Origin: a virus
IMG/VR virus record: IMGVR_UViG_3300037119_005846
Span: 1-64,000 of that record
Length of the DNA: 64,000 bases
Strand: one strand, 5' to 3'
Shown here: piece after piece, positions 6,461 through 24,853 of the stretch
How the letters are laid out: every line of letters starts with the position of its first letter
How positions within the stretch are numbered: the first letter of the stretch is position 1
Position numbers and translations under genes: made by a program
The notes under the pieces: generated by a model
What the model was told of the DNA's origin: nothing
What the model saw: only the letters and a program-made list of their open reading frames with translations
The model's database searches: none

Positions 6461-6718
6461 ATGCTCAAAGGACGCTCTGTCATTGAGACAATGATCATCG
6501 CCTTCACGGCGATCGTCGTGTTCGTGATGTTCGCGACGGCGACGACGATCGCCATCGTGGAGATCCTCTCTCACGGTGACGCCAACACCGATAACGCCGT
6601 GGATGGCCTGATGTCACTCATCAGTGCCATCCTCGGTGCGTTGCTCGGGTTGATCGCCGGCAAGTCGGACACAATCAACAAGCCGCCGCCTAAGCCGCCC
6701 GAGGAGCCGCCGTCGTGA
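6461..6718 (+). CDS. Small two-TM membrane protein
   Basis: Two hydrophobic stretches and a Pro-rich tail. Confidence 0.65.
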   Translation: MLKGRSVIETMIIAFTAIVVFVMFATATTIAIVEILSHGDANTDNAVDGLMSLISAILGALLGLIAGKSDTINKPPPKPPEEPPS

Positions 6719-7572
6719 GCAAGTTTCTGCCGCTCTACATCCTGGCCGGTGTGTCAATCAGCACGGGCGCCTCAACTGCAGCGGTGTTAGCGGCCACTGA
6801 CGGCGCCGGTGGTGTGACACCAGTAACCACAGTCGTCAATGTCCCTACTGGCACTGTCTCGTTCGAGGTCATCCCCGGCCCGGCCGGTCCGGAGGGACCA
6901 CAGGGCGAGCAAGGTGAGCAGGGAGTTCGTGGTCCATCCGGAAGCGACGGTGAAGATGGCGAGTCGATCGTTGGCCCGCCCGGCTCGCCCGGCAATGATG
7001 GTGAAAGCATCATTGGCCCAGCGGGACCACCCGGAAGCGACGGCGAGGACGGCAGTGATGGGATCGCTGGCGAATCGATCACCGGACCTGCTGGTCCTGC
7101 CGGACCGCAGGGTGAGCCGGGCCAGGACGGCAGCGACGGCAACGACGGCCAGTCGATCCAAGGCGAGCAAGGCGAGCGCGGACCAGCCGGCCCGCGGGGC
7201 TCGCCCGGCGAGAACACGCCGGTTCCCGGTCCTCGAGGTGAGCCGGGCCCACCAGGAAGCATTGGTCCGGCCGGGCCGCCTGGAAGCTCGGTGACGGGAC
7301 CGGCCGGACCGGCCGGGCCTGCCGGCCCGCCGGGGGCTGACTCACAGATTCCAGGCCCCGCCGGTCCGCCCGGAAGCTCGGTCGTCGGTCCGGCGGGTCC
7401 AGCCGGGCCGCAGGGTGAGATCGGTCCGCAGGGCGAGCAAGGACCGCAGGGCGAGCAGGGCCCAGCCGGCGACTCTAGCGGATGGTGCCCCGGCTCGATC
7501 ACGCAGATCGTCGTCCATCAGCGTGTCCCATTCGACGGCGATGTCGCGATAGTCGCGTGTGTTGTTGGCTGA
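6715..7572 (+). CDS. Collagen-like (Gly-X-Y) protein with N-terminal signal/membrane anchor
   Basis: About 200 aa of GPA/GPQ/GEQ triplets after a hydrophobic N-terminus; two C-terminal Cys. Confidence 0.85.
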
Positions 7573-7671: not shown

Positions 7672-9522
7672 TTGAACGGCAACGACCAGTTCGATGATCG
7701 ACTCTCACGTCTCACTGAGCTCAATGACGACGAACTGTCCAACCTCGAAGAGGAAATGGTAGCGGCCTTCGATGCCGCTGACTCCGCCGGAGACGTCGAC
7801 CAGATGCAGCAGCTTGCTGATGCTCTGGACGGTGTTCGCGCAGAGAAGGCGAATCGCGAGAGCGCGGCCGGAACCGCCGAAGAGGCGACAGCACCTGCAG
7901 AGGAGGCGCCGATGGCGCCAGCCGTTGCAGCGTCCGCAGAGAGCGAAGACGAGAGTGGAGAGAACGACAAGCCCAATGGCGAGAGCGAAGCCACTCCGGA
8001 AGAACCCAGTGGAGACGAAGCACCAGGAGACGCGGAAGCCGCTCCCGAGGATGCGCCCGTCGAGCCACCGGACCCCGAGGCAGACGCCGTCGCATCCGAT
8101 GACACGACTAACGAGGAGGAGACCGTGAAGGTCACCAACGCGGACGTTCCCGCCGACAACCAGCCGGTGACGGCTTCCGCGGGTCCGGCCTACACCATCA
8201 CTGCTGGCGGGGACATTCCCACTATCACGGCCGGCAGCCCACTCAACGACATGGACGAAGTCGTCGATGCCATGGTCAAGAAGGTCAACGCCATGCGCGG
8301 CGTTGGCGGCGACGGCGAGCAGGTCATTGTCGCCTCACTTCGTCGAGATCTCGAAGACGAGTTCGGCGATGATCGTGTCCTGCGTCGCGGCGACACCGAG
8401 GGCAACTCTGCCAAGATCCGGAAGTTCAACCAGGAGAACCACACCGTCGAGTCGCTGACCGCGGCCGGCTGGTGCGCTCCCAAGACGCCGATGTACGACA
8501 TTCCCGGCGTCGGCTCGACGGCAACGCCCGTCGCTGACAGCCTGGCGTCGTTCGGCGTCGACCGTGGCGGGATCATCTGGACCGAGCCGCCCTCCCTGGG
8601 CACGTTCTCGACTCAGCTGGCGACACTCGGCGTCTGGAAGAACACGGCGACCCCGCCGACTCAGACGTGGCAGTACGTCCCGGGCACGACCGGCGCCGGC
8701 ACGCCGGCCAACACCAAGCCGTGCATCGACGTCCCGTGCGGCACAGAGCGCAGTGCCGAGCTGATCGCCATCCCGCTCTGCCTTTGCTTCGAGGTCCTCA
8801 TGAGCCGGGTCAACCCCGAGCTCGTGAAGGCGTCGACCGATCTGGTCCTCGTCGGTCAGGCTCGGTTCAAGGAGCAGTGGCTGCTGGCTCAGATGTTCGG
8901 AGCCTCCGGCGTGGTCAACACGCCGGCGACGATCGGCACGCCTGACACGCCGCTTGGTATCGCCCGCGACTTCCTCGTCGGCGTACGACTCGTGGCAAGC
9001 CAGTTCCGCTGGCGAAACCGTCTCGACGCGGGCCAGCAAGTCGTGCTCTACGCTCCGGCGTGGCTGCGCGACGCGATTGCCAGCGACCTGGCGATCCAGA
9101 TGCCCGGCGACGACACCCTCGACACCGGCTACTCCGAGGTCGACGGCTACCTGACCAGCGTCAACGTCAGCCCGGTGTGGTTCATCGACGACGTCCCGAC
9201 GGGAGTCGGCACCGGCGCGACTGCGGCAACGTCGAACTTCGACTCGTACCTCGGGTACGGGACACCGGCAGAGTGGCTGATGACTCTTCCCGGCGTCTTC
9301 ACTCGCCTCGACGGCGGGACGCTGGATCTCGGCGTGGTCCGCACCAAGGACGATGTCCTGGCCAACAAGTACTGCGAGTTCGCGGAGACGTTTGAGTCGG
9401 TTGCCTACATGGGACCGACCGTTGCCGCCAACGCGTGGGCAATCCGTGGCACGACGCCAGTCGCTCTCCGCGGTGGGTTCGCTCCCGCCGTGGCCAGCCT
9501 GACGAGTGTCTTCGCTGAATAA
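7672..9522 (+). CDS. Major capsid protein with N-terminal acidic scaffold-like region
   Basis: 616 aa, TTG start with GAGGAG RBS. Coiled-coil/acidic N-terminus, then LTAAGWCAP, RGGI, KPCIDVPC and LDGGTLDLGVVR..D...N.Y..F.ETFE motifs typical of actinophage major capsid (hexamer) proteins. Confidence 0.85.
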   Translation: MNGNDQFDDRLSRLTELNDDELSNLEEEMVAAFDAADSAGDVDQMQQLADALDGVRAEKANRESAAGTAEEATAPAEEAPMAPAVAASAESEDESGENDKPNGESEATPEEPSGDEAPGDAEAAPEDAPVEPPDPEADAVASDDTTNEEETVKVTNADVPADNQPVTASAGPAYTITAGGDIPTITAGSPLNDMDEVVDAMVKKVNAMRGVGGDGEQVIVASLRRDLEDEFGDDRVLRRGDTEGNSAKIRKFNQENHTVESLTAAGWCAPKTPMYDIPGVGSTATPVADSLASFGVDRGGIIWTEPPSLGTFSTQLATLGVWKNTATPPTQTWQYVPGTTGAGTPANTKPCIDVPCGTERSAELIAIPLCLCFEVLMSRVNPELVKASTDLVLVGQARFKEQWLLAQMFGASGVVNTPATIGTPDTPLGIARDFLVGVRLVASQFRWRNRLDAGQQVVLYAPAWLRDAIASDLAIQMPGDDTLDTGYSEVDGYLTSVNVSPVWFIDDVPTGVGTGATAATSNFDSYLGYGTPAEWLMTLPGVFTRLDGGTLDLGVVRTKDDVLANKYCEFAETFESVAYMGPTVAANAWAIRGTTPVALRGGFAPAVASLTSVFAE

Positions 9523-9580: not shown

Positions 9581-10489
9581 ATGACTGCAAGAGACAATGC
9601 AGCATCCGTACAGGGTGACGCGATTCGCATCACGCCACTCAACATCGACGGCACGATCAACGCGTCGAAGCCGATCCTGACGACGGACGGCTTCATCTCG
9701 GCGAGCTTCGGCACGGAGTTTGAAGATGGGGACGAAATTTCGGAGAAGGCAGCCAACGGCAAGGTCTGCATTCAATACAAAGCTGACGACTCGATGACGG
9801 GTATTACGTTCAATCTGTCACTGTGCTCGCCTGATCCCGAGGCCGCGGCTGTTCTCGCCGGCGGTGACGTGATCATGAGCTCGGCGTCTGGTCCCGTCGT
9901 TGGTTACTCGTCTCCGGGCGTCGGTGATCTCGTCGGTAACCCGGTGGCAATCGAGATCTGGTCGAAGGCGATCATCAACGGCAAGCCTGCTAGTGGTGAC
10001 CCGTACTGGGCATGGGTATTCCCGTACGTCCGCGTCCGCTACGACGGTGATCGTGAGTTCACCAATGGCGCGCTCGCGAACGAGTTCTCGGGAACCGGAG
10101 TCGGCAACGACGCTCTCGTCGCGGCCGGCCTCAACCCGGTCCGCCCCACGGATACCTTCGTCGTCTACCGCGGTGCTCTCACCAACCCGTTCAGCTACGT
10201 CCGCGCGGCGTCACTGCCGACCTTGGGCTGGAGCACGGTGGCATGGAGCGGTGGTGGCATCGGCCCGAGCGGCACGACCATCGCGGCGACTCTGGCGACC
10301 GGCGCTACCGCCGGCACCCCTGGCTCCTTCACGGGAGGCGCCGTCCCGGCCAACCTCGCCGCCCTGACCGGTGCCGCGCCGGCCATCGTCGCCTCGCCGA
10401 CCTCGGCGTGGACCGGAACACAGTACGTCGTGCTAGGTGACGGCAGCCACGCCTTCTGGAACGCGACAGCCTGGACGGCAGGGCACTGA
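9581..10489 (+). CDS. Major tail protein
   Basis: EDGDEISEKAANGKVC, LCSPDPE, VAIEIWS and YWAWVFP motifs, plus a C-terminal ATGATAGTPGSFT..PANLAAL..W...QYVVLGD..W accessory domain seen in actinophage tail tube proteins. Confidence 0.75.
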   Translation: MTARDNAASVQGDAIRITPLNIDGTINASKPILTTDGFISASFGTEFEDGDEISEKAANGKVCIQYKADDSMTGITFNLSLCSPDPEAAAVLAGGDVIMSSASGPVVGYSSPGVGDLVGNPVAIEIWSKAIINGKPASGDPYWAWVFPYVRVRYDGDREFTNGALANEFSGTGVGNDALVAAGLNPVRPTDTFVVYRGALTNPFSYVRAASLPTLGWSTVAWSGGGIGPSGTTIAATLATGATAGTPGSFTGGAVPANLAALTGAAPAIVASPTSAWTGTQYVVLGDGSHAFWNATAWTAGH

Positions 10490-10922: not shown

Positions 10923-11645
10923 ATGACACAGACGAGACAGTGGTCTGTCTACAGCTTGATCGATCCGCGAGACGACGTCGTACGATACGTAGGACTCACG
11001 ACGAATCCAACGAAACGTCTAAGACAACATCTCTACGCCGCGACGCACGGAGCGCCAACTCACTTGTACAAGTGGATTCGCACACTCATTGCGGCTGGTC
11101 TCAAGCCGACGATGAGAATACTTGAGGCAGATGAGTGGACGCGTAGTCAGGCTGATCTTCGCGAGCGCTACTGGATCTCAGAGTTTCGACGCGCTGATCT
11201 GTCACTAACGAATTACACGCGTGGCGGCGAGGGCGGCTGGGGTAGTACTGCAGTGTTCGGCACACGGGAGTATCGTGATCGAGTCTCGGCTGGCGTCAAG
11301 GCACGGTTTGCGAAGTACCCAAAGACACCATCGGAGCGAGGCATGGATGAGGCATGGCGCGACGCAGTTCGACAAGGCAATCGTCGCGCGTGGGACAACC
11401 CAGTCAAGCGTGATCAGATGCTAGAGCGGTTTCGCGCATCGTACTCGGCAACTATTGCGGCAATGACTGAAGAGGAGCGGCAGGCGCGACATGAGCGTCA
11501 CGTCATGGCCGGCAAGTCCATCACCCCCGAAGGACGTGAGCGCTGGAAGCGTCAGATGTTCACGAAGACATCTTGTCCTGACTGCGGCAGAGAGTTCAAC
11601 CGTGTCTGGATGAAGCGACATAAGACGATTGGGCAGTGCACATGA
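10923..11645 (+). CDS. GIY-YIG homing endonuclease
   Basis: VYSLIDPR...RYVGLT..P.KRL.QH, E.YWI and LTN...GGEG motifs; C-terminal CxxC. Confidence 0.85.
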   Translation: MTQTRQWSVYSLIDPRDDVVRYVGLTTNPTKRLRQHLYAATHGAPTHLYKWIRTLIAAGLKPTMRILEADEWTRSQADLRERYWISEFRRADLSLTNYTRGGEGGWGSTAVFGTREYRDRVSAGVKARFAKYPKTPSERGMDEAWRDAVRQGNRRAWDNPVKRDQMLERFRASYSATIAAMTEEERQARHERHVMAGKSITPEGRERWKRQMFTKTSCPDCGREFNRVWMKRHKTIGQCT

Positions 11646-12304
11646 CTCTGCCACCTGACGACCCGGCGCATCAAGACTTCGAGGTTCAGTGGTGGGGCGA
11701 CTGCGCAAACACGTTCTCCGAGGAGACGAAGCAGATCACCTACGCCTACCGGATGGGGCTGGTCCAGACGACGCTGGGTGAGAAGTGGCCGGTGTACGAC
11801 GTCGGCCACAGAGTCATCGTCGACGTCGGCGGCGGCCCGTCGAGCATTCTCCTGAAGTGTCTCAACGTCGGCGCCGGCAGCATGGTCATCGATCCGGGCG
11901 CCTACCCGGAATGGACGCGAGCGCGATACGAGCACTGCGACATCACGGTGTTGCGCGCGCACGCAGAACGCGCGCTGGCGGCGATCAACGAAGAGTCGTT
12001 CGACGAGGCATGGTGCTACAACGTCCTTCAGCACGTCATCGACCCATACGAGATCCTGCGCGAGGCGCGTCGCGTGGCCGGCCGCATCCGCATCTTCGAG
12101 TGGGTCAACACGGAGCCGTCACTCGGGCACCCGCACAAGCTCCTGCCCGAGGCACTAGACGAGATACTGGCCGGAACCGGCCGTGTCGACGACATTCATG
12201 AGAACGGGTGTCACGGCCAGGCGTACTACGGCACGTTCCTGACGAGGCCTTTCGGGCCTGATAAGGTAGCTGGCTCGGTACAGACCACAGACAGGAGACA
12301 GTGA
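11642..12304 (+). CDS. Class I SAM-dependent methyltransferase
   Basis: IVDVGGGP motif I; FDEAWCYNVLQHVIDP motif; ATGA-coupled. Confidence 0.8.
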   Translation: MTLPPDDPAHQDFEVQWWGDCANTFSEETKQITYAYRMGLVQTTLGEKWPVYDVGHRVIVDVGGGPSSILLKCLNVGAGSMVIDPGAYPEWTRARYEHCDITVLRAHAERALAAINEESFDEAWCYNVLQHVIDPYEILREARRVAGRIRIFEWVNTEPSLGHPHKLLPEALDEILAGTGRVDDIHENGCHGQAYYGTFLTRPFGPDKVAGSVQTTDRRQ

Positions 12305-13748: not shown

Positions 13749-14531
13749 GTGGCAGCTCCACTGACGCCGTGGGTCTCTATCTATGATGTGCTCGGGCGAT
13801 ACGCACCCGAGCTGATTGATCCTGATACTGGCGAGATCATCGGTGATCCGATCGTTGTCGCCCAGTGGCAGAGCGCGATCGACTACGCGACATGGACGCT
13901 GTCAACGCTCTCACGCGGGGCAGTTCATCCTGAAGAGTGCTGGATCGATGAGTACTTGACCACGGCCAGCTGCAAGATCCAGCTGCGTCATCAGCCGCTT
14001 CTTACGGTCATCCGCGTTGACGCGGTCACGGTGTGCGGCAGCTCGATCAACGCGCCGAGCGAGATCGAGTACTGTCTGATCGACCCGCGCACGATCGACG
14101 TCTGTTGCTCTACCGGTGGAGTGACATCATCGCAGTGCGGCTGCTTCCAGACCGCTATCCGCGTCTACTACCGAACAGACTCGACGCTGCCACCGAGCAC
14201 GGAATACCTCATCGCATGGCTCGCGAATCAGCTCATGCTCCAGCAAAGTGGCAGAGCGTGCGAGCTTCCTCAGCGCGTCACGTCGGTCTCGCGCCAGGGC
14301 GTCAGCTGGTCGTTCGTCGACCCGATGGACTTCCTTGACAAGGGTCTGACCGGCATCGGTCAGGTAGACACGTGGGTCTCACTCGTTAGATTGAACTATC
14401 CGTCGTCGCGCCTGATCGATCCACTTCGCTCGCAGTTGCGCACCACGCGACGTGTCAACTGCGACGGCGCTGAGTTCCAGTCTGTCGAGTATTCTCCCAG
14501 CTTCAACGTCACGACAGACATGGTGGGATGA
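13749..14531 (+). CDS. Head-to-tail adaptor
   Basis: [17 protein letters not shown]...D....GLTGI..VD.W motif typical of actinophage adaptors. Confidence 0.75.
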
Positions 14532-17383
14532 TGACGATCAGCGACAAGTGGCTCAAGTCCGGCTACCCAGCGACACTCGACGCCGGCGTCGAGTCAAGTA
14601 TCGCGCCGTTCCAGGACAACACCGAGGAAGAGATCACGGCGCGAATCCTTCGTAACTTCGCGTACGAGATCGATCAGATCCTGACCGAGTGGATTGGCGA
14701 GGGGCATGGACCACCGGGAGCGACCGGAGCGACCGGGCCGCCCGGCGCCGGTTTCAACTACGTGGGCGTCACCGGAGACGACCCACACGTCGGCGTTAAC
14801 TCACTAACTGTGGGTGAGATTCCGGCGGGCGGCTGGTCCACCGGCGATCTCGTCTTGGCGTTCTACTCGTACGAGGGCGGCGGCGGCGGCAGTGTGCCGA
14901 CGATCGTGCCGCAGCTCTGGGTCTACAATGAAGAGCCGACGACAATCTGGACGTGGATTGGCGAGATAGCCAGTCCTATTCCCGGACCGATCGGTCAGAC
15001 CGGCGCAACCGGACCAACTGGTGAGCGAGGCTCATCCGGGACGACAGGAGAGACAGGTCCGCGTGGCATTCAGGGCTACGTTGGCATGCCTGGTTCGACC
15101 GGACCGATCGGGCCGCCGGGGCCTAGCGGGCGGCCCGGACCGTCAGGCTCACCGGGACCCTCCGGTTCATCTGGAGCAGCCGGGCCCGCGGGTGGTCCAA
15201 CAGGTCCATCGGGCGTGTCTGGCGCCGTCGGTCCTTCAGGTCCTCCCGGTGCGACAGGGCCGGCCGGGCCGTCTGGAGCATCTGGCCCTCCCGGCACCGG
15301 CGGCGGAGGTAGCGGTGATGGAGCGACTGGAGCGACTGGAGCGACAGGAGCGACAGGCGTCAAGGGAACAACGGGAGCTACCGGACCAACCGGGCCAACC
15401 GGTGCAGGGACGACCGGCGCGACCGGGCCAGTAGGCGCAGGAACAACTGGAGCGACCGGGCCAGCTGGCTCTGTCGGTGCGACAGGCTCGACCGGACCTG
15501 CTGGCACCGTCGGTGCGACAGGCGCGACTGGACCAGCCGGTGTCACGGGACCAACCGGCACCGGCGGACTGACAGGCGCAACGGGACCGACCGGCGCGAC
15601 AGGAGCAGCCGGCTCTGGTGTCGCTATCAAGGGCACGCTGTCCGGCACCGGTACAGCGCTGCCGTCGTCACCGGTCGTCGGTGACATGTGGATTCTTGGC
15701 TCGCCGGTGCCGACTGCCGCGCCTGATCCACCTGCCGGGTCAAAGGCGCCTGGCGACGGTATCGTCTGGTCCGGCTCAGTATGGAACAACGTTGGCCCAA
15801 TTCGTGGGCCGCAGGGTGACATCGGTCCTACCGGGCCCGCGGGAGTAACGGGAGTAACAGGAACAAGCGGCGCGACAGGAGTAACCGGACCCACCGGATT
15901 GACGGGTGTCACCGGACCGACTGGTGTCACCGGCACAGTCGGAACGACGGGAGCGACTGGACCCACCGGACCTGTGGGTACTACTGGTCCTACAGGCGTG
16001 ACAGGAGCAGCCGGGGTAACTGGGGTCACCGGGGCAACAGGCGTCGGCGCTACCGGTGTCACAGGACCGACTGGTGTGACAGGAGCAACCGGTGCCGGCG
16101 TGACTGGCGCGACAGGGCCAACCGGTGTGACGGGAGCGACGGGTGCCGGAGTTACCGGGGCGACAGGACCGACTGGTCCTACCGGGCCGACCGGCGTGAC
16201 AGGAACTGCGGGTGTCACGGGAGCCACCGGCGCAACCGCGACGGGTGCCGTCCTGACTACGCGCACGATTTCCACGACCGCGCCACTGACCGGCGGTGGT
16301 GACCTGTCTGCGGACCGTACTTTCGCGATCACCGACTTCACCGTGTCGACAAAGGGTACGGTCCCGACTCCTGGCGGCACGAGCAGTGGCCGGTTCCTGA
16401 TGGACGACGGCACCTGGACCGTTCCACCGTCGACGTCCAGCTCGGCGTCCGGGGTGTTCCCGTTCATGTACTCGACGTCGACGACGGAGCCGCCGACCGG
16501 TTCCCAGATCCGCGGCAACAACGCCACGTTCACGTCGTCCACGAAGTTGTGGATCATGGAGACGACCACCGACGGCCTCGACGTCACCGTCGGTCTCGGC
16601 CGGATCAAGGCCGGGTTCCAGGTGTACGTGCAGGACTACTCGTCGTCGGCCCGCTACGCCCTGTTCAACGTCACCGCCGACGCCACCGACAAAGGCGTCT
16701 ACTGGGAGGTGACCGTCGCGCTGGCGTCGTCGGCTGGCACCGTCCCGGCCGGCAAGATCGCCTTGCAGACGTTGTCGTCGGCGCAGGCATCGAAGGTGTT
16801 CTCGACGACGGCGACGATCCCAGGGATCGTCCCCGGCTCGAACGGTGCCACCACCTCGTTCCTGCGTGGCGACGCCACCTGGGCGACCCCGTCGACCACG
16901 CCGGCCGCGTCGACGATCACGCCGGCGATGATGGCCAACGGCGACTTCGGTGACTTCACCGTCGCCTCCAACGTCGCCACCATCGACGCCGCCGCCGTCA
17001 CGTTGGCGAAGATGGCGAACCTCGCCCAAGACCAAGTGATCGGCCGCACTACCGCCTCGACCGGTGTACCGGAGACGTTCACCGTCACCGCCGCGGCACG
17101 CACCGTCCTCGACGACACCACTACCGCGGCGATGCTGACGACGTTGGGCGCCCAACCCGTCGACTCGGACCTGACGACGATCGCCGGCCTGACCGCCACG
17201 ACCGACAACATCATCCAGTCGGTCGGCTCGGCGTGGGCGTCACGCACGCCGGCGCAGGCTCGCACCGCCCTCGCTGTACCCCAGGCTCTCAACGGACTGG
17301 TCGCCGTGTGGAAGGGCACCGCCGCTGAGTATGCCGCTATCGGCACTAAAGACGCCAACACCCTCTATGCCGTCACCGCCTAG
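14528..17383 (+). CDS. Collagen-like tail fibre / minor tail protein with Gly-X-Thr repeats
   Basis: Long GAT/GPT/GVT tracts, FLRGDATW fibre motif and C-terminal [16 protein letters not shown]. Confidence 0.85.
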
Positions 17384-18316: not shown

Positions 18317-18768
18317 GTTCCCTGAACCTCGTCTCGGTGACGGCGACGTCGTCGGGGTTGACGACGGCCACGACCGCCTACACGGCAGACGACACGCTCG
18401 GCGCCCTCATGTCGTGGAACGTGACGGCGGCGAAAGGGTTGATCCTCGGCGCCGTCATCACCGACGTGTCCGACATCATCGGTGCCGTCGACGTGTTCCT
18501 GTTCGACAGGTCCGTCACGTTCGGCACCGACAACGCCGCCCCGTCGATCTCCGACGCCGACATCCTGTTCGACATCGGCGTCATCAACTTCCCGTACCCG
18601 TACGACCTGGGCGGCGCCCGAGCCGCGTCGGTCGACTCGATCGCCCTGCCGTACACCGCCAACGCCTCGACCACCATCTACGGCGGGCTGGTCACCCGGT
18701 CGGGGCACACTTTCTTCGGTGCCGCCTCGGCGCTGCAAGTGAGGCTGCTCGTCTCGACGGACTCGTAA
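18313..18768 (+). CDS. Small beta-rich virion protein
   Basis: Coupled 151-aa ORF, Thr/Ala-rich. Confidence 0.55.
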   Translation: MSSLNLVSVTATSSGLTTATTAYTADDTLGALMSWNVTAAKGLILGAVITDVSDIIGAVDVFLFDRSVTFGTDNAAPSISDADILFDIGVINFPYPYDLGGARAASVDSIALPYTANASTTIYGGLVTRSGHTFFGAASALQVRLLVSTDS

Positions 18769-18770
18769 CG

Positions 18771-19454
18771 ATGGCACGGGCGTTCAGTTCCTCGTACATC
18801 CAGTACGCCGCCGGGCCGTTGGAGACGCAGGCGACGACGACGATCACACTTGCCGCCGCCTTCGTGCCGCCCGCTATCAACGGGGCATGGCAGGCGATGC
18901 TCGGGGTCAACACCTCGGGGGCCGCCGACGGAATCGAACTGAGCCTCGACAACTTCGGCTGCCAACCGTTCATCTACGACAGTAGTGGCCAGATTTTTTC
19001 CGGGTTCCAAGCGTTCGTCGCCGACGGCTGGACTGTGTTGGCGGCGACGTTGACGGCATCGCAGACAACGTTTCATTACTACGTGTTCGGCACCAACACC
19101 TGGACGCACACCACCGCGGCCGGCAGCGCGAACCCTGACCCGGCCGGTACGGGCGGCGCGTACATTGTCGGAAGGTCACGCGGCACCGACGCTATGGCCG
19201 CGTCGACGTGGGCGGCGGGGGCGATCTGGTTCCGTGAACTGAAACAGGGTGAGATCGAACGGCTGCCTCGCGGCAACTGGTGGACGACGACCCCCGCCTT
19301 CCACGTCGAGTTCCCGTCCGGAGTCGACAATCCGGCGCTGACGAAGGACGTCAGCCGCTACCACCTGACTCAGTCGACGGTGTCCGGCACCACCCGCGCC
19401 GCCCTCGCCGACCCGCCCGGCTTCCGTTTCTCACCGCTCAATCGGAGGCGCTGA
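18771..19454 (+). CDS. LamG/concanavalin-like domain protein
   Basis: True start is probably MARAF at 18771; GWT.LA.T and IWFREL..GEI..L pattern of LamG folds. Confidence 0.6.
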   Translation: MARAFSSSYIQYAAGPLETQATTTITLAAAFVPPAINGAWQAMLGVNTSGAADGIELSLDNFGCQPFIYDSSGQIFSGFQAFVADGWTVLAATLTASQTTFHYYVFGTNTWTHTTAAGSANPDPAGTGGAYIVGRSRGTDAMAASTWAAGAIWFRELKQGEIERLPRGNWWTTTPAFHVEFPSGVDNPALTKDVSRYHLTQSTVSGTTRAALADPPGFRFSPLNRRR

Positions 19455-19900
19455 TGGCTCACGGGCCGGCCGGGCACCTCCTGCTGCCGATCCGCGGCCG
19501 GTCCGGACCGGCCGCCCCGACCGTCGTGCAGGAGGGGTTCCGTTGGCGTAACGACGACGGGTCAGAGACGACAGCAACCTGGGCGGCGGCACAGGACACG
19601 AACGCGTCGTTGGCGTTGGCGACGAACACCCGGCTGCGTGTCGTGCTCGACGCAACCGGCGATCCGGCCCCGACCGCCTACACCCTGTACTACAAGAAGT
19701 CGACGGACTCGACGTGGCTGCCGGTCGCGGTCGGATCAGGTGGCGGCGACCCCGTGTACGTCGCCACGTCATCGAACATCACTGCTTCGGGTGAGGCGAC
19801 GACCGCTCAACTGACTGCACCGTCCGGTAAGACGACGGCCGATTTCTCGGTGGGCCGGATGTGGGACGACGAGAACGGCACCGACCTGATCGACCTCTAG
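19454..19900 (+). CDS. Virion appendage protein carrying the FRWRNDDG module (part A)
   Basis: TGATG-coupled start; QEGFRWRNDDGSETTA...GRMWDDENG.D.IDL, repeated at 21355-21723. Confidence 0.65.
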   Translation: MAHGPAGHLLLPIRGRSGPAAPTVVQEGFRWRNDDGSETTATWAAAQDTNASLALATNTRLRVVLDATGDPAPTAYTLYYKKSTDSTWLPVAVGSGGGDPVYVATSSNITASGEATTAQLTAPSGKTTADFSVGRMWDDENGTDLIDL

Positions 19901-19908
19901 GAGCACCG

Positions 19909-20343
19909 ATGGCAACAACGAAACACAAGGCCTACTCAGCGGCGATCGCGAACGTCCACACGACGTCGCTCAACTCGTTGGCGAACAACGCCAACAGTGC
20001 GGCGTCGTCGGCGATCGACAACGGGACGCTCCTCGACCTGTACGACGACCTCACCTTGACCGTCGCCACGCAGGGTTCGGCCCGTTCGGCCGGGGCCGTC
20101 GTCACCGTCTATCTGATCCCGGCGTTGGACGGCACCAACTACGACGCCGTCAGCGAAGCCACCGCAGAGGTGGCCGCCGTGTTCTCGCTGGATGCGGCGA
20201 CGACGGCCCGCCAGTCGACGCGGCGTGACATCCCGATCCCGCCCGGCCTGTTCGAGTACTTCGTCCGCAACTCGACCGGGCAGGCATTCGCCTCGTCCGG
20301 CAACATCCTCGAACGTCGCCCGCATTCGTTGGAGACTGCCTGA
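19909..20343 (+). CDS. Small beta-rich virion protein
   Basis: AGGAG RBS; YLIPALDGTNY and IPPG.F.Y...N.TGQA motifs. Confidence 0.6.
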   Translation: MATTKHKAYSAAIANVHTTSLNSLANNANSAASSAIDNGTLLDLYDDLTLTVATQGSARSAGAVVTVYLIPALDGTNYDAVSEATAEVAAVFSLDAATTARQSTRRDIPIPPGLFEYFVRNSTGQAFASSGNILERRPHSLETA

Positions 20344-21068
20344 TGTCGGCCCCGGCGATCGCCGTACGTCCAAGGTGGCGGCCCGCTGCTTCGGCCTCCG
20401 TCGACTGGTCACATCCGTTGTCGAACATGTTGATGTCGGCGATCGTCGTGGAGGCGGGCAGCTTCGTGGATCTGGCCGGCGGTGTGCAGCTTCCCGTCAA
20501 CGTGGCGCCGCCCCACACCGTGAACGGCTGGGGTCGGGGGATGGGGAACACCGCTGCCGGTGAGGGCGCCTTCCTGACGATCGGCACCTCGCACCGGTTA
20601 TGTCTTCAGCCGCCGTTGTCGCTGATGTGGGTCGGCAGCCGGGACGGCACCCCCGACGACTTCGCCGACCTGTTCGGGGTGATCCTCGACGCCAACCCGT
20701 ACTTCTGTTACGGACTCGGCTTCGAGACTTCACCGTCGACCAGGATGAAGTTCGCCTACAACGACTCCGGGTCCAGCTACTACAACGCCCAAACGACGGC
20801 CGCGTTGCCAGCCGGACCGCAGGTGGCGGTCGGTGTCCTACCTCGGGGTAACGGGTCCGCCCTGTACGCCAACGGCACCGTGGCGACTGGCAATACGTGC
20901 AATGTGATCGGGTATACGTCGACGGCAATATTCATCATTGCAGGAAGCAACCTGCTCGGCCGTGCCACCCGAGCCACAACGAATTTCGGGGCCGTCTGGA
21001 ACCGTGAACTATCGGCTGGCGAGATCGTCCAGCTGTCCGCCGACCCGTTTACTTTTCTGAGGAGGTGA
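20343..21068 (+). CDS. LamG/concanavalin-like domain protein
   Basis: VDWSHPL, LYANG and VWNRELSAGEI.QL.ADPF motifs. Confidence 0.7.
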   Translation: MSAPAIAVRPRWRPAASASVDWSHPLSNMLMSAIVVEAGSFVDLAGGVQLPVNVAPPHTVNGWGRGMGNTAAGEGAFLTIGTSHRLCLQPPLSLMWVGSRDGTPDDFADLFGVILDANPYFCYGLGFETSPSTRMKFAYNDSGSSYYNAQTTAALPAGPQVAVGVLPRGNGSALYANGTVATGNTCNVIGYTSTAIFIIAGSNLLGRATRATTNFGAVWNRELSAGEIVQLSADPFTFLRR

Positions 21069-21072
21069 CCCG

Positions 21073-22290
21073 ATGATCGCTGCGGGCCGCGTCGCACTCC
21101 TCGCAACGCCTGCATCGGCGTCGACCAGCAAGTACACCGAACTCGAATGGTCACTGAAGACTCAATCGCCGGCCGTCAACACTGACGTCTACGAGTTCCG
21201 GGTCTTCGCCGGGTCGACACCGCTCAACTCGTACGCCGTAACCCCGCAGCTCACCATCAGCGTTGCTGTCAGCACCTACGACGAGACCGGTCGCAGTGTC
21301 ACCATCGCCGCCACGGTCAACAGCACCAGCGTGCAGTACATCGGGATCCTCACCCAAGAGGGATTCCGCTGGCGCAACGACGACGGCAGTGAGACAACGG
21401 CGACGGGACTGGCGGCTCAGGACACCAATGCATCGCTCGTTCTCGCCACAGCGGCTCGCCTTCGAGTGCTGGTCGACACCGCCGGCAGCCAGGCTCCAAC
21501 GAAGTACAAGCTCTACTACAAGAAGACGACCGACTCAGTGTGGGCGCCCGTCCCGGTGGGATCTGGTGGTGGTTCTCCGGTCTATGTCGCTACATCGTCC
21601 AATATCACCGCCTCCGGTCAGGACACGACGGCGCTCCTCGCAGCGCCTTCGGGCAAGACCACCGCTGACTTCCTGACCGGCCGCATGTGGGACGACGAGA
21701 ACGGCGTTGATGCCGTTGACTTAACTGGTGTTCCCTCGTTCGCCCCGTTCGTGCTCGCCGACATCACCGGCCCCGGCATGGGCACTCCGTCCGTCACTGC
21801 CGGCGTGCTGTCGACATCGAACGGCGGCTACGGGCGCCTGATCTTCCTACCGGCTACACGCACTGCCCATAACTGCCTCTTCGAGGTCGAAGTAGATCGC
21901 TCCGAAATCGATGGTGAGTCCTGGTGGGCACTGCTGGTCAACACCGACTCCAGTGCTAACGGCGGAATCAAGACGATGATTCATTGGGGGAGCCACAACA
22001 CCTCCGACGCTTCGGGAGTGTCTGCTGGTCTGTCCAGTGACTGGATGTACGCAAGCGGCACGATGGCTCGGATCGCTTCTGACCCGTCTGGATGGACGAA
22101 CTCGGGGGTTCACACGGTCGGCCTTCGTGTCGTCGGTTCACAGGTCACCGTTGTCCTGGATGGCATAGATGTGTTCCAAGTAACTGACTCGGCCTTTGCC
22201 ACGATGACAGCCGGAGGTTACGTCGGCGTCGGCGGTGACACAGGTGGTGCCACGCGCTCCTGGAACACCTGGCGTCTGACGGAGTTGTAG
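21073..22290 (+). CDS. Modular appendage protein: KYTELEW module (B) + FRWRNDDG module (A) + lectin-like domain
   Basis: Internal similarity to 19454-19900, 22293-22547 and the C-terminus of 22558-24468. Confidence 0.7.
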   Translation: MIAAGRVALLATPASASTSKYTELEWSLKTQSPAVNTDVYEFRVFAGSTPLNSYAVTPQLTISVAVSTYDETGRSVTIAATVNSTSVQYIGILTQEGFRWRNDDGSETTATGLAAQDTNASLVLATAARLRVLVDTAGSQAPTKYKLYYKKTTDSVWAPVPVGSGGGSPVYVATSSNITASGQDTTALLAAPSGKTTADFLTGRMWDDENGVDAVDLTGVPSFAPFVLADITGPGMGTPSVTAGVLSTSNGGYGRLIFLPATRTAHNCLFEVEVDRSEIDGESWWALLVNTDSSANGGIKTMIHWGSHNTSDASGVSAGLSSDWMYASGTMARIASDPSGWTNSGVHTVGLRVVGSQVTVVLDGIDVFQVTDSAFATMTAGGYVGVGGDTGGATRSWNTWRLTEL

Positions 22291-22292
22291 CG

Positions 22293-22547
22293 ATGGCCAA
22301 GTACACCGAGTTCGAGTGGAACCTGAAGCTCCAGTCCCCGGCGACTGGCAGTGAGGTCTACGAGTTCCGCGTCTATGCCGAGGACGACCCGTTCGGCACC
22401 TACGCCGTCACCCCGCAGCTGACGGTCAGTGGTGGCGGAACAACCGGCTCATTCGTCGGCGTCAACGCCGTCACTGCCGCTTACATTGGCACTACCGCTG
22501 TCACTAAACTGTACGTTGGAACCACTCAGGTGTGGCCGCCCGTCTAG
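22293..22547 (+). CDS. Small appendage protein with KYTEFEW module (B)
   Basis: KYTEFEW.LKLQSPA...VYEFRV.A; C-terminal KLYVGTTQVWP. Confidence 0.65.
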   Translation: MAKYTEFEWNLKLQSPATGSEVYEFRVYAEDDPFGTYAVTPQLTVSGGGTTGSFVGVNAVTAAYIGTTAVTKLYVGTTQVWPPV

Positions 22548-22557
22548 GAAGTGAAGT

Positions 22558-24468
22558 ATGAGCAGCACCCAAGATTTCCCGCCAGCAATCGGCCAGAGCC
22601 CGTGGGGTGAGGACCTCAACACGTATCTGGCGTGGCTCGACACCCGGCTCGCCCGCATCGAGGACGGCACGATCGGCCCGCAACTGCCGTTCGCGCTGTC
22701 ACCGTTCGGCGCCGTGCACGCTCTCGTCTCTGATCTCGTGACGTTGGCAACCACCCCGCCGCTCGGCACGCTCGGCGTCAACAACTCCGTGCACGTCATG
22801 ACGTCGGACACGCCGACGCTGACGGTGCCGCCGCCCACTGTCTGGACGCTCGCCCCGGCCAACGCCGCCCACGTCATGACGTCGAACACCCCGGCGCTGC
22901 TACCGGACGGGCCGGTCGAGTTGACGATGGAGGCGGGGGCGACGACCTTCCAGCCGTGGGTCCAGCTGCAGGTCGGGTCGACGGCGACGATCACGTGGAA
23001 GGACACGGCCGGGGCGACGATCGGCACCGGTTCGCAGCCGACGATCACGGTGCCCACCGACCGCATCGTCCGCATGTACGTCACCCAGAGCGGGCTGCCG
23101 GCGATGAACCAGGTCGACTACTTCAACATCGGTTTCGACGACAACCAGGACCAGGGCCGCGAAAGCATCGGTCACGCCTACGACTGGCCCGGTCAACGCG
23201 TCGTTCAGATGGCCGGCACCCAGCTGCTGACCGGGATGCGCTATTTCATGGCGGCCAACACGCCGCTGTCGACAGCGTTCAACTTCACCGGCATGTCGAA
23301 CCTGCAGTTCATCGAATGTTTCGGGGCGAAGATCACGACCGCCGTGCTGACCGGCTGCACATCACTGATCAGGTTCTGTGTCGAGGGATGCAATATCAGC
23401 TACATGGACTTCTCCCCGGTCAAGAACTGCCTAAGGGATCTGCGCTGCGCCGCCAACCACGGCGGGCCAGTGACACTCTTCACAGACGGTCCCATGACGC
23501 AGCTATTTCACTACTGCGTCCAGGGTCAGACCGTGGCTGTACACCTACCGGGCGCCATGTTGCCAGCGATCTCCGAATTCTGGGTGTACGGCACCGACAT
23601 CACGGCGATAGACCCGATCATCTCGCCCGCCGCCGCAAGCATTCTGATGCAGCACAACCCGCTGAACCAGGCCACGGTGGACGGCATGCTGATCCAGGCG
23701 AACGCGATGGGCCTCAGCGGTAGCGGTATCAACTACAACCTGACTGACGGGCACCCGCCGACGTCGGCGGGGCAGGCGGCGCGGGTCGCCCTGGAGAACA
23801 GGGGATGCCGTATCGAGTGTCCGAATGCCGGTACCGACAGCGGCTTGAACGGCACACTCGGCACCTATACCGCGCCGACGCATCAGCCGTGGGTTCTCGC
23901 CAACACGCACACCACGGCGGGCGCCTTCGGTACCGTCAACATGATTACGAGCGTCACCTCAGGTGTGCTGGCGGCGGCGTGGGACGCATGGCAGATGTGC
24001 CTGTTCAACCCGACCGGCCACTCCACTTGGGAGGACTGCTACTTCGAGGTCGTGATCGACTGGGCCGAGATCAACAACTCATACGACTGGATGTTAGTAG
24101 TCAACAGCGACACCAAAGGCCGCAACGGCGCCCGTCTCAAGGTCAACTGGTCGGTGGTCAATAGCGGTCAGGATTGGGGTGTCAGTGCGGGCAAGTCCGA
24201 CTCATATGACTACAACACCCCCGTCGAATGTGTCCGCATCGCTCCCAACCCGGCCGGCTGGTCCAACGCCGGGGCACACAAGTTCGGCATCTACCACGGC
24301 GGCGACACCTTGTACCTCACACAGGACAGCGTGAAGACACACCGCTGCCGCACGCCGTGGATCGACTGGCTCGGCGGCGGACCGTACGCCGGGATCGGCG
24401 GCTACGGCATCGGCGGCAAGACCTATCACTTCGCGTCATGGGGCTATGCCCCCGTGACGATTCCCTGA
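22558..24468 (+). CDS. Minor tail/receptor-binding protein with LRR-like repeats and C-terminal lectin-like domain
   Basis: LTGM..L..I.C / LTGCTSL..F repeats; duplicated N..HVMTS.TP.L; C-terminus similar to the end of the 21073 ORF. Confidence 0.6.
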   Translation: MSSTQDFPPAIGQSPWGEDLNTYLAWLDTRLARIEDGTIGPQLPFALSPFGAVHALVSDLVTLATTPPLGTLGVNNSVHVMTSDTPTLTVPPPTVWTLAPANAAHVMTSNTPALLPDGPVELTMEAGATTFQPWVQLQVGSTATITWKDTAGATIGTGSQPTITVPTDRIVRMYVTQSGLPAMNQVDYFNIGFDDNQDQGRESIGHAYDWPGQRVVQMAGTQLLTGMRYFMAANTPLSTAFNFTGMSNLQFIECFGAKITTAVLTGCTSLIRFCVEGCNISYMDFSPVKNCLRDLRCAANHGGPVTLFTDGPMTQLFHYCVQGQTVAVHLPGAMLPAISEFWVYGTDITAIDPIISPAAASILMQHNPLNQATVDGMLIQANAMGLSGSGINYNLTDGHPPTSAGQAARVALENRGCRIECPNAGTDSGLNGTLGTYTAPTHQPWVLANTHTTAGAFGTVNMITSVTSGVLAAAWDAWQMCLFNPTGHSTWEDCYFEVVIDWAEINNSYDWMLVVNSDTKGRNGARLKVNWSVVNSGQDWGVSAGKSDSYDYNTPVECVRIAPNPAGWSNAGAHKFGIYHGGDTLYLTQDSVKTHRCRTPWIDWLGGGPYAGIGGYGIGGKTYHFASWGYAPVTIP

Positions 24469-24484
24469 CCAAGGAGAAACAGTT

Positions 24485-24853
24485 ATGGCCAAGCGAGTAG
24501 ACAGCACGGTCCTCGACACCGGACTCAACGTGATCAAGACCGGGGCGATCCGTATGACGGTGTGCTCGGCCGAGCCGACGAACATGGCCGCCGTCGCCGG
24601 GGTCACCCTCGCCGAGGTGACGATGGCGTCGACCGACATGACCGTCGGGGCCGGCACCGGGCAGGGCCGCAAGCTGACGACGACGGCGAAGAACTCGGTG
24701 CCGATCCTCACGACCGGCAACGCCACCCACATCGCCCTGCACAACAACTCGACGGTCCTCTACTACGTCACCACCTGCGCCCTGCAGTCGTTGACGGCGG
24801 CGGGCACGGTGAACATCCCGGCGTGGACGATCGAGATCCAGGCGCCGACCTGA
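24485..24853 (+). CDS. Putative virion structural protein
   Basis: AAGGAG RBS; VLD.GL..I, GRKLT, G.ATHIAL and GTVNIPAW motifs. Confidence 0.6.
   Translation: MAKRVDSTVLDTGLNVIKTGAIRMTVCSAEPTNMAAVAGVTLAEVTMASTDMTVGAGTGQGRKLTTTAKNSVPILTTGNATHIALHNNSTVLYYVTTCALQSLTAAGTVNIPAWTIEIQAPT

Follow-up and report, generated by a model that had tools for sequence, protein, structure and literature searches.

Why would a phage encode two sequence modules on different proteins, each present twice, with the break between them at the same point? We examined this question in a window of 64,000 nucleotides (positions 1 to 64,000 of the IMG/VR virus record IMGVR_UViG_3300037119_005846), which belongs to a 96-kb genome of an uncultivated phage. 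The initial annotation of the window had noted that module A and module B recur in neighboring putative appendage genes, and had proposed that the two are parts of one fold that is completed between proteins. We first confirmed the modules and their order, then investigated how they occur in homologs, and finally considered which assembly best explains their separation.

Two copies of modules A and B in the fiber locus

All four modules were confirmed (Table 1), and the whole 96-kb genome holds exactly two A and two B modules. In a BLASTP comparison, A1 and A2 were identical at 96 of 125 positions (77%, E 1e-64), and B2 and B1 at 37 of 75 positions (49%, E 2e-20), with the latter match running past the core of B into the linker/tail. 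At the DNA level, A1 and A2 were only 68% identical, with pS 0.73 and pN 0.18 (dN/dS about 0.07), while B1/B2 gave dN/dS about 0.35. Both pairs are thus under purifying selection, and they are old copies kept by selection rather than a recent duplication.

Table 1. Coordinates of the A and B modules and of genes in and around the fiber locus
Feature	Coordinates	Strand	Description
Major head protein	7672-9522		Structural gene
Major tail protein	9581-10489		Structural gene
Adaptor	13749-14531		Structural gene
Collagen-like tail fiber	14528-17383		Structural gene
227-aa protein	18771-19454	+	LamG-like C-terminal motif
P0001	19454-19900	+	148 aa; 23-aa leader plus A1 (residues 24-148); ends ..LIDL, followed by TAG
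Module A1	19529-19897		P0001 residues 26-148
144-aa protein	19909-20343	+	Unknown family
241-aa protein	20343-21068	+	LamG/ConA-like
P0002	21073-22290	+	405 aa; B1 (19-63), one stalk repeat as linker (64-92, YDETGRSVTIAAT..), A2 (93-217), putative C-terminal ConA-like lectin-type domain (about 221-405)
Module B1	21130-21261		P0002 residues 20-63
Module A2	21355-21723		P0002 residues 95-217
P0003	22293-22547	+	84 aa; B2 (2-46) at the very N-terminus (MAKYTEFEW), 38-aa tail motif (..YIGTTAVTKLYVGTTQVWPPV)
Module B2	22299-22430		P0003 residues 3-46
636-aa protein	22558-24468	+	Neighboring fiber or receptor-binding gene; same putative C-terminal lectin-type domain as P0002; no A or B module
Next gene	24485-24853		

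The locus lies in the structural module, just after the collagen-like tail-fiber gene. Each gene has its own ATG and a Shine-Dalgarno-like site, with GGAGG lying 6 nt before the ATG of P0001. The TGA of the 227-aa gene overlaps this ATG (TGATG), suggesting translational coupling, although membership of the 227-aa protein in the assembly is only inferred; it has no Pfam hit and shares only a short motif with the 241-aa protein. The initial annotation regarded the two genes between A1 and B1 as unrelated. This was correct only in part, because the second is itself LamG-like, with a weak Laminin_G_3 match (E 9.6e-6, 26.3 bits against a cut-off of 27.6). In a syntenic related viral contig, L027, a module of that type is fused directly in front of B (L027 P2), and LamG-B fusions also occur in the proteins P0223, P0226 and P0229, although no direct sequence match to these was found. 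The 144-aa protein had no family match and no homolog in the related loci at E 1e-5. Introns, inteins and homing elements were rejected as the cause of the separation, as no endonuclease signature was found in these intervening genes.

The C-terminal domain of P0002 is 32% identical to the C-terminus of the 636-aa protein, which is conserved, with the next gene, downstream of the A/B genes in the related contigs L009/L027 (57% and 74% identity). This domain gave no Pfam hit and no sequence hit to solved structures; the nearest Atlas clusters, at score 0.97, carry PF06439 in 24% of members, which is a lead only. Searches of 50,697 GenBank phage records found nothing, either by megablast of 18700-24500 or by tblastn of P0001. 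No Pfam, NCBIfam or PHROGs match was obtained for P0001-P0003 or for fused homologs of A and B, and literature searches combining split-domain, strand-complementation or gene-fission terms with phage fiber terms returned no relevant paper.

Contiguity in homologs and predicted structure

To investigate whether A and B form one unit, we examined 213 homologous proteins and found 181 instances in which A is followed by B within 4-6 aa, with junctions such as ..DDENGxDxIDIxxDxYTELEW.. Tandem (AB)n arrays also exist, for example in P0123 (6179 aa) and in P0124, the Paceibacteria protein of contig L050. This agrees with the contiguity supposed in the initial annotation. The family, recognizable by FRWRNDDG...YTELEW, comprised 1973 clusters at E<=1e-3.

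An AlphaFold2 model of the fused homolog P0149 showed pLDDT >90 over residues 38-203 as a single predicted Ig-like beta-sandwich, in which B supplies the last three strands (163-172, 180-187 and 200-203). Every structural match spanned residues 37..204-207 as a single Ig/FN3-like domain. However, Foldseek against the PDB gave no match at E<=0.001, and VIA-wide comparison gave only generic Ig-like matches at Z 6-8, with a best Z of 8.4. Based on this model, A ends before the last three strands of the sandwich.

We next modeled the complex of P0001 with residues 1-92 of P0002. The model scored ipSAE 0.93/0.94/0.93, whereas the best of three controls scored 0.01. There were 233-240 confident contacts, and the runs agreed in at least 93% of contacts. 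The pLDDT of the P0002 fragment was 69-70, falling to 35 when A1 was replaced, and that of A1 was 87-88, falling to 62-63 with unrelated partners. The predicted interface on the second chain was residues 18-66, which is B1, with B1 21-26 lying against A1 61-65 and B1 41-45 against A1 77-80. In the calibration of this score, 58 of 80 solved complexes and 2 of 110 mismatched pairs passed, but it holds only roughly here because our own alignments were used. The score is a model's confidence rather than a measurement of binding, and halves of one domain tend to pass such a test. No like solved complex was found. Only the A1 and B1 pair was modeled, and the pairing of A2 with B2 rests on homology.

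Recurrence of the split and alternative readings

The split was not confined to this locus. Related viral contigs have proteins that end exactly at the end of A, or at A plus a cargo domain, and the next gene then starts MA(K/G/DK)YTE.EW, often with a TGATG stop/start overlap. In L010, ..DSVDI is followed by TGATG and MADKYTELEW; in L006, an 1806-aa protein with A plus 680 aa is followed by MAKYTEVEW; in L003, A plus 434 aa is followed by a 70-aa protein starting MAGYTELEW, the counterpart of P0003; and L027/L034 show a three-protein chain, with the tail of P0003 matching the C-terminus of L027 P3 at E 4e-6. Further proteins that start with B are P0216, P0224, P0241 and P0276, while a search for small B-only proteins with P0003 found one 55-aa hit. 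At least ten phage-sized contigs carry both an A without B and a B without A.

These observations bear on the possibility that the pieces are leftovers of recombination or fission, with A and B acting only as conserved recombination linkers that flank cassettes. Fiber loci are highly mosaic, the modules flank variable cargo domains, the two genes between A1 and B1 look like an insertion, and no hit in cultured phages provides a functional anchor. On the other hand, A1/A2 show low dN/dS with saturated synonymous sites, the start codon sits exactly at the first residue of B in divergent contigs, A and B counts are equal in every complete locus, and A alone lacks three strands and is predicted with lower confidence without B. 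We therefore consider gene decay very unlikely.

Fusion of the pieces by read-through or frameshifting, or stops that are sequencing or assembly errors, appears even less probable. In L003 the stop between A plus its cargo and B is a single in-frame TGA, and many junctions have overlapping or adjacent stop and start codons. However, the frame relation differs from locus to locus, being in frame in L003, +2 in the window, and a one-base TGATG overlap in L006, L010 and L008. In addition, every B has its own ATG and usually a Shine-Dalgarno site, A1 and B1 are 1.2 kb apart, and the same boundaries recur in contigs from different metagenomes, for example L008 and L009, and L016-L019. Without read data, the stops in the window rest on the assembly and on this recurrence.

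A further alternative is that B1 folds back over the 29-aa linker onto A2, so that P0002 is self-contained and only P0001 and P0003 pair in trans, or stay unpaired. The linker is long enough in principle, P0149 has exactly the leader-A-B-tail architecture that equals P0001 plus P0003, and the similarity of A1 and A2 means that either could accept either B. A model of P0002 alone folded poorly (mean pLDDT 45) and does not exclude such cis pairing. Comparative data, however, favor trans pairing. Within a domain the order is always A then B in the 181 instances, and B followed by A occurs only as the junction between successive domains, 6-11 aa apart in tandem arrays. The P0002 linker is a conserved stalk repeat whose motif follows B in L006, L027 and the further contig L030, where no A is near, and in L027 P2 about 235 aa of stalk separate B and A. 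In L003, L006 and L010 only trans pairing is possible. Cis pairing in P0002 thus seems unlikely, although it is not excluded.

Proposed trans completion of a predicted split domain

Taken together, we favor, with moderate confidence and on computational evidence alone, the interpretation that A and B are two pieces of one predicted Ig-like domain of about 170 aa, which serves as a joint in phage fibers and in giant surface proteins. Each A would receive its last three strands from the N-terminal B of another polypeptide, holding P0001, P0002 and P0003 together non-covalently in a short fiber, A1.B1-stalk repeat-A2(-lectin).B2-tail. This supports the initial annotation in its main point, but the ordered chain it envisaged, with A1 specifically taking B1 and A2 taking B2, was not demonstrated. 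A1 is closer than A2 to the A of L003, and B1 is closest to the B of L010, so there is no clear congruence. P0001 has no other domain and cannot by itself tether the chain to the virion. Two genes also lie between A1 and B1, whereas in relatives the A and B genes are usually adjacent.

The initial annotation also suggested that the A/B break is a slot for cassettes, and this holds. LamG, GDSL esterase, DUF4082, CBM_4_9 and apiosidase-like modules sit at the A/B junction or in a second slot inside A, and these loops are also where gene boundaries fall. Single-chain relatives such as P0149, P0015, P0124 and P0123 have the same two slots and the same classes of cargo (LamG, CBM, glycosidase-like, esterase), but their chain is continuous, while in the window and its relatives a gene boundary sits in the slot.

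The proposed arrangement resembles donor-strand complementation in chaperone-usher pili, in which an incomplete Ig-like subunit is probably completed by an N-terminal extension of the next. It would work like that system but is not a member of it: three strands (about 45 aa) rather than one would be donated, there is no sequence or family relation, and the joint also carries cargo domains. No family match to a chaperone or usher was found among the neighboring genes, and none is expected for a phage assembling in the cytoplasm. In branched receptor-binding complexes such as those of CBA120 and G7C, docking probably occurs between complete folded domains, and no family match to those adaptors was found. 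Compared with engineered split Ig-like domains such as SpyTag/SpyCatcher, which probably forms an isopeptide bond, this would be a natural, recurrent, non-covalent version.

Because P0002 carries both a putative donor (B1) and an acceptor (A2), a more speculative and rather unlikely possibility is that it polymerizes head to tail like a pilin, with P0001 and P0003 as end caps, giving a lectin-studded fiber [P0001].[P0002]n.[P0003] of variable length. More widely, split AB joints at two conserved loop sites would be a general plug-in system by which many uncultivated phages build and exchange receptor-binding appendages.

If the pieces do assemble, this is a natural fragment-complementation joint for phage fibers, bringing the donor-strand logic of bacterial pili into phage morphogenesis and offering compact natural split-domain pairs for protein engineering and for re-targeting phage receptor-binding proteins. 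It also defines a large domain family, about 2000 clusters, that is absent from Pfam, NCBIfam and PHROGs, and it indicates that small "orphan" ORFs of 70-150 aa in fiber loci can be halves of a domain. Such a joint would explain how these phages attach several sugar-binding or sugar-cleaving modules to one appendage, and how cassettes are swapped without breaking assembly.

Genomic context and the two copies of each module

The window is part of a 96-kb uncultivated virus record of about 64% G+C, and the genes examined here lie within its virion structural block, downstream of a head protease/portal-like gene and the genes for the major head and tail proteins. A GIY-YIG endonuclease gene and a methyltransferase gene sit between the major tail protein and the adaptor/fibre genes, inside the structural block. 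The window also contains two collagen-repeat proteins, the larger of which has long Gly-X-Thr/Pro tracts, with a glycosyltransferase gene nearby. The seven genes of the module, from the 227-aa to the 636-aa protein, each have an ATG and a Shine-Dalgarno-like site.

Features of the window in and around the split-domain genes
Coordinates	Strand	Product or feature	Remarks
6715-7572		Collagen-repeat protein	
7672-9522		Major head protein	
9581-10489		Major tail protein	
10923-11645		GIY-YIG endonuclease	
11636-12304		Methyltransferase	
13749-14531		Head-tail adaptor	
14528-17383		Collagen-like tail fibre	951 aa
17387-17974		phrog_8123, unknown function	195 aa
18771-19454	+	Protein with a LamG-like C-terminal motif	227 aa
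19454-19900	+	P0001	148 aa
19909-20343	+	Unknown family	144 aa
20343-21068	+	Weak Laminin_G_3 match	241 aa
21073-22290	+	P0002	405 aa
21262-21348		Single stalk repeat of P0002	Between B1 and A2
22293-22547	+	P0003	84 aa
22431-22544		Tail motif of P0003	
22558-24468	+	Leucine-rich-repeat-like middle part, lectin-type C-terminal domain	636 aa
25098-26201		Glycosyltransferase	

The initial annotation had described one domain apparently split at the same point twice, and this observation was confirmed. Module A of P0001 (A1, residues 24-148) and that of P0002 (A2, residues 93-217) are 77% identical over 125 aa (E 1e-64), and P0003 residues 2-76 and P0002 residues 19-91, which contain the two copies of module B, are 49% identical (E 2e-20). 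P0001 ends exactly at the end of A (..LIDL, stop), whereas P0003 begins MAKYTEFEW, so that B starts at residue 2. At the DNA level, A1 and A2 are only 68% identical, with synonymous sites near saturation and a dN/dS of about 0.07, while dN/dS for B1/B2 is about 0.35. Both copies are therefore old and kept by selection. The whole genome has exactly two A and two B modules. The C-terminal lectin-type domain of P0002 recurs in the 636-aa protein (32% identity), which is conserved together with the following 122-aa gene in the related viral contigs L009/L027.

A and B as parts of one predicted domain

To examine the relationship between the two modules, we built small HMMs of A and B and mapped them on 213 homologues obtained from two database searches. 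A was followed by B within 4-6 residues in 181 instances, with junctions such as ..GRRWDDENGDDNIDIAEDEYTELEW.., and giant proteins carried tandem (AB)n arrays with 6-11 aa between a B and the next A. These include P0123 (6179 aa) and P0124, a 2777-aa protein of Candidatus Paceibacteria. Structure prediction of the fused homologue P0149, using an alignment of 40 sequences, gave a model with pLDDT above 90 for residues 38-203, which forms one beta-sandwich in which B supplies the last three strands. Foldseek and VIA-align matched residues 37 to 204-207 as a single Ig/FN3-like sandwich, with matches including RhoGDI/PDE-delta, CARDB, macroglobulin MG domains, the Wzt carbohydrate-binding domain and CLIPPER. 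However, nothing was close: the Foldseek E-value was at best 2e-3, and the best Z was 8.4, a generic level. The family has 1973 clusters at E<=1e-3, yet it has no model in Pfam, NCBIfam or PHROGs, and no tblastn hit was found in 50,697 deposited phage genomes. It also occurs in metagenome-assembled genomes of several phyla, including candidate-phyla-radiation bacteria.

Recurrence of the split in related contigs

Related viral contigs showed the same arrangement. In L010, one protein ends ..GRMWDDENGTDSVDI, and the next gene starts on the overlapping TGATG with MADKYTELEW. In L006, an 1806-aa fibre protein carries A at 1003-1125 followed by 680 aa of other domains, and the next gene starts MAKYTEVEW, again on TGATG. 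In L003, A plus 434 aa is followed by a 70-aa protein starting MAGYTELEW, which is the counterpart of P0002|P0003. The contigs L027/L034 are syntenic with the window, sharing homologues of the 195-aa, 636-aa and 122-aa genes, and hold a three-protein chain in which P1 ends with A, P2 consists of LamG-B-about ten 24-aa stalk repeats-A-LamG', and P3 consists of MADFTELEW..-stalk repeats-tail. The 195-aa protein is conserved at about 60% identity just upstream of the A/B fibre genes in L003, L006, L008/L009 and L012, and is a marker of this fibre module.

Two parts of the window's proteins have counterparts in the chain of L027/L034. The stalks in the relatives (L027:6329-9828 for P2 and P3) are made of repeats of about 24 aa (..TDQADWKSNVGLSVPVVATTT..), each segment opening with Y/F-(D/N)-ETGRS(I/V)TI, and the 29-aa linker of P0002 (YDETGRSVTIAAT..) is a single copy of that repeat. 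The tail of P0003 matches the tail of P3 (E 4e-6). A tail motif of short hairpins (..YIG..V.KLYVG..QVWP; INIGDDFKEV..) is shared by P0003, the C-terminus of L027 P3 and P0149 residues 205-253; it follows B in terminal proteins and may be the end piece or an anchoring piece of the fibre. The two genes between A1 and B1 in the window are unusual. The second is LamG-like and occupies the place of the LamG that is fused to B in L027, though without detectable sequence similarity.

A profile search with B found more proteins that begin with B (P0216, P0224, P0241 and P0276), as well as many with a LamG or other module directly in front of B. In every complete locus, the numbers of A and B agree. 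Given this parity, the precise starts and the purifying selection, decay is unlikely. Recoding or assembly error is likewise unlikely, although this judgement was made without read data, because the frame relation at the junctions varies (in frame in L003, +2 in the window, and a one-base overlap elsewhere), every B has its own start, and the same boundaries recur in contigs from different samples.

Interestingly, many single-chain homologues carry about 200 aa inserted inside A, between HMM positions about 68 and 76. In P0001, this corresponds to the loop V91-P100, which in the window is a bare GSGGG loop. In at least a dozen viral contigs and several genome bins, a gene boundary falls at this site, such that one protein ends with the first four strands and another, adjacent or 1-3 kb away, supplies the rest of A plus B. 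In the viral contigs L013, L016-L020, L022, L031, L036 and L037 and the genome bins L048, L049, L053-L055 and L060, the first protein is about 230-290 aa long, and the second, adjacent or 1-3 kb downstream, starts with or contains the rest of A plus B; L015 also has a boundary at this site. This form is more widespread than the A/B split. The inserts are carbohydrate-directed modules, with LamG, GDSL esterase, DUF4082 and CBM_4_9 in the inner slot and apiosidase-like glycosidase and LamG after A. The initial annotation had proposed that the A/B break serves as a slot for inserting lectin cassettes; the idea of a slot for cassettes is therefore borne out, and there are two slots.

Predicted pairing of A with B

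To investigate whether A may bind B, we modelled the complex of P0001 with P0002 residues 1-92. The result supported an interaction, with ipSAE values of 0.93, 0.94 and 0.93 against 0.01 for the best of three controls, and with 233-240 confident contacts, at least 93% of which agreed between runs. Partner pLDDT was 69-70, compared to 35 when A1 was replaced, and A1 pLDDT was 87-88, compared to 62-63 with unrelated partners. In the calibration of the method, the mark was reached by 58 of 80 solved complexes and 2 of 110 mismatched pairs, which holds only roughly here because our own alignments were used. The score is a model's confidence rather than a measurement, and halves of one domain tend to pass such tests; however, no like solved complex was found that could explain the pass by memory. 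The interface on P0002 is residues 18-66, exactly B1. In the model, B1 21-26 lies against A1 61-65, B1 41-45 lies against A1 77-80, and B1 27-29 touches A1 102-103. The donated strands therefore sit inside the sheets rather than at an edge.

P0002 modelled alone folded poorly (mean pLDDT 45), and we cannot exclude that B1 folds back on A2 in cis. Several lines of evidence argue against this reading: B-then-A order occurs elsewhere only between successive domains, the linker is a conserved stalk repeat that follows B even where no A is near, and only trans pairing is possible in L003, L006 and L010. Because P0002 has both a donor and an acceptor, it could also polymerise, with P0001 and P0003 as end caps. 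The proposal of the initial annotation that the fold is completed in trans is supported by comparative and predicted-structure evidence, although it is unproven biochemically.

The proposed mechanism works like the donor-strand complementation of chaperone-usher pili, in which an incomplete Ig fold is completed by the N-terminus of the next subunit. It is not a member of that system, however, as three strands are donated, the neighbouring genes gave no family match to a chaperone or usher, and there is no family relation. It also resembles the branched receptor-binding complexes of some phages in outcome, but not in the docking principle. We found no paper describing such a split joint in phage fibres, although the literature searched was incomplete and this is only weak evidence of novelty. 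The proposed joint rests on an undescribed and widespread domain family. Giant cellular surface proteins such as P0123 and P0124 are built from tandem AB domains, some with large inserts in the inner slot, and the domain is thus shared between phage fibres and the surface proteins of ultrasmall bacteria.
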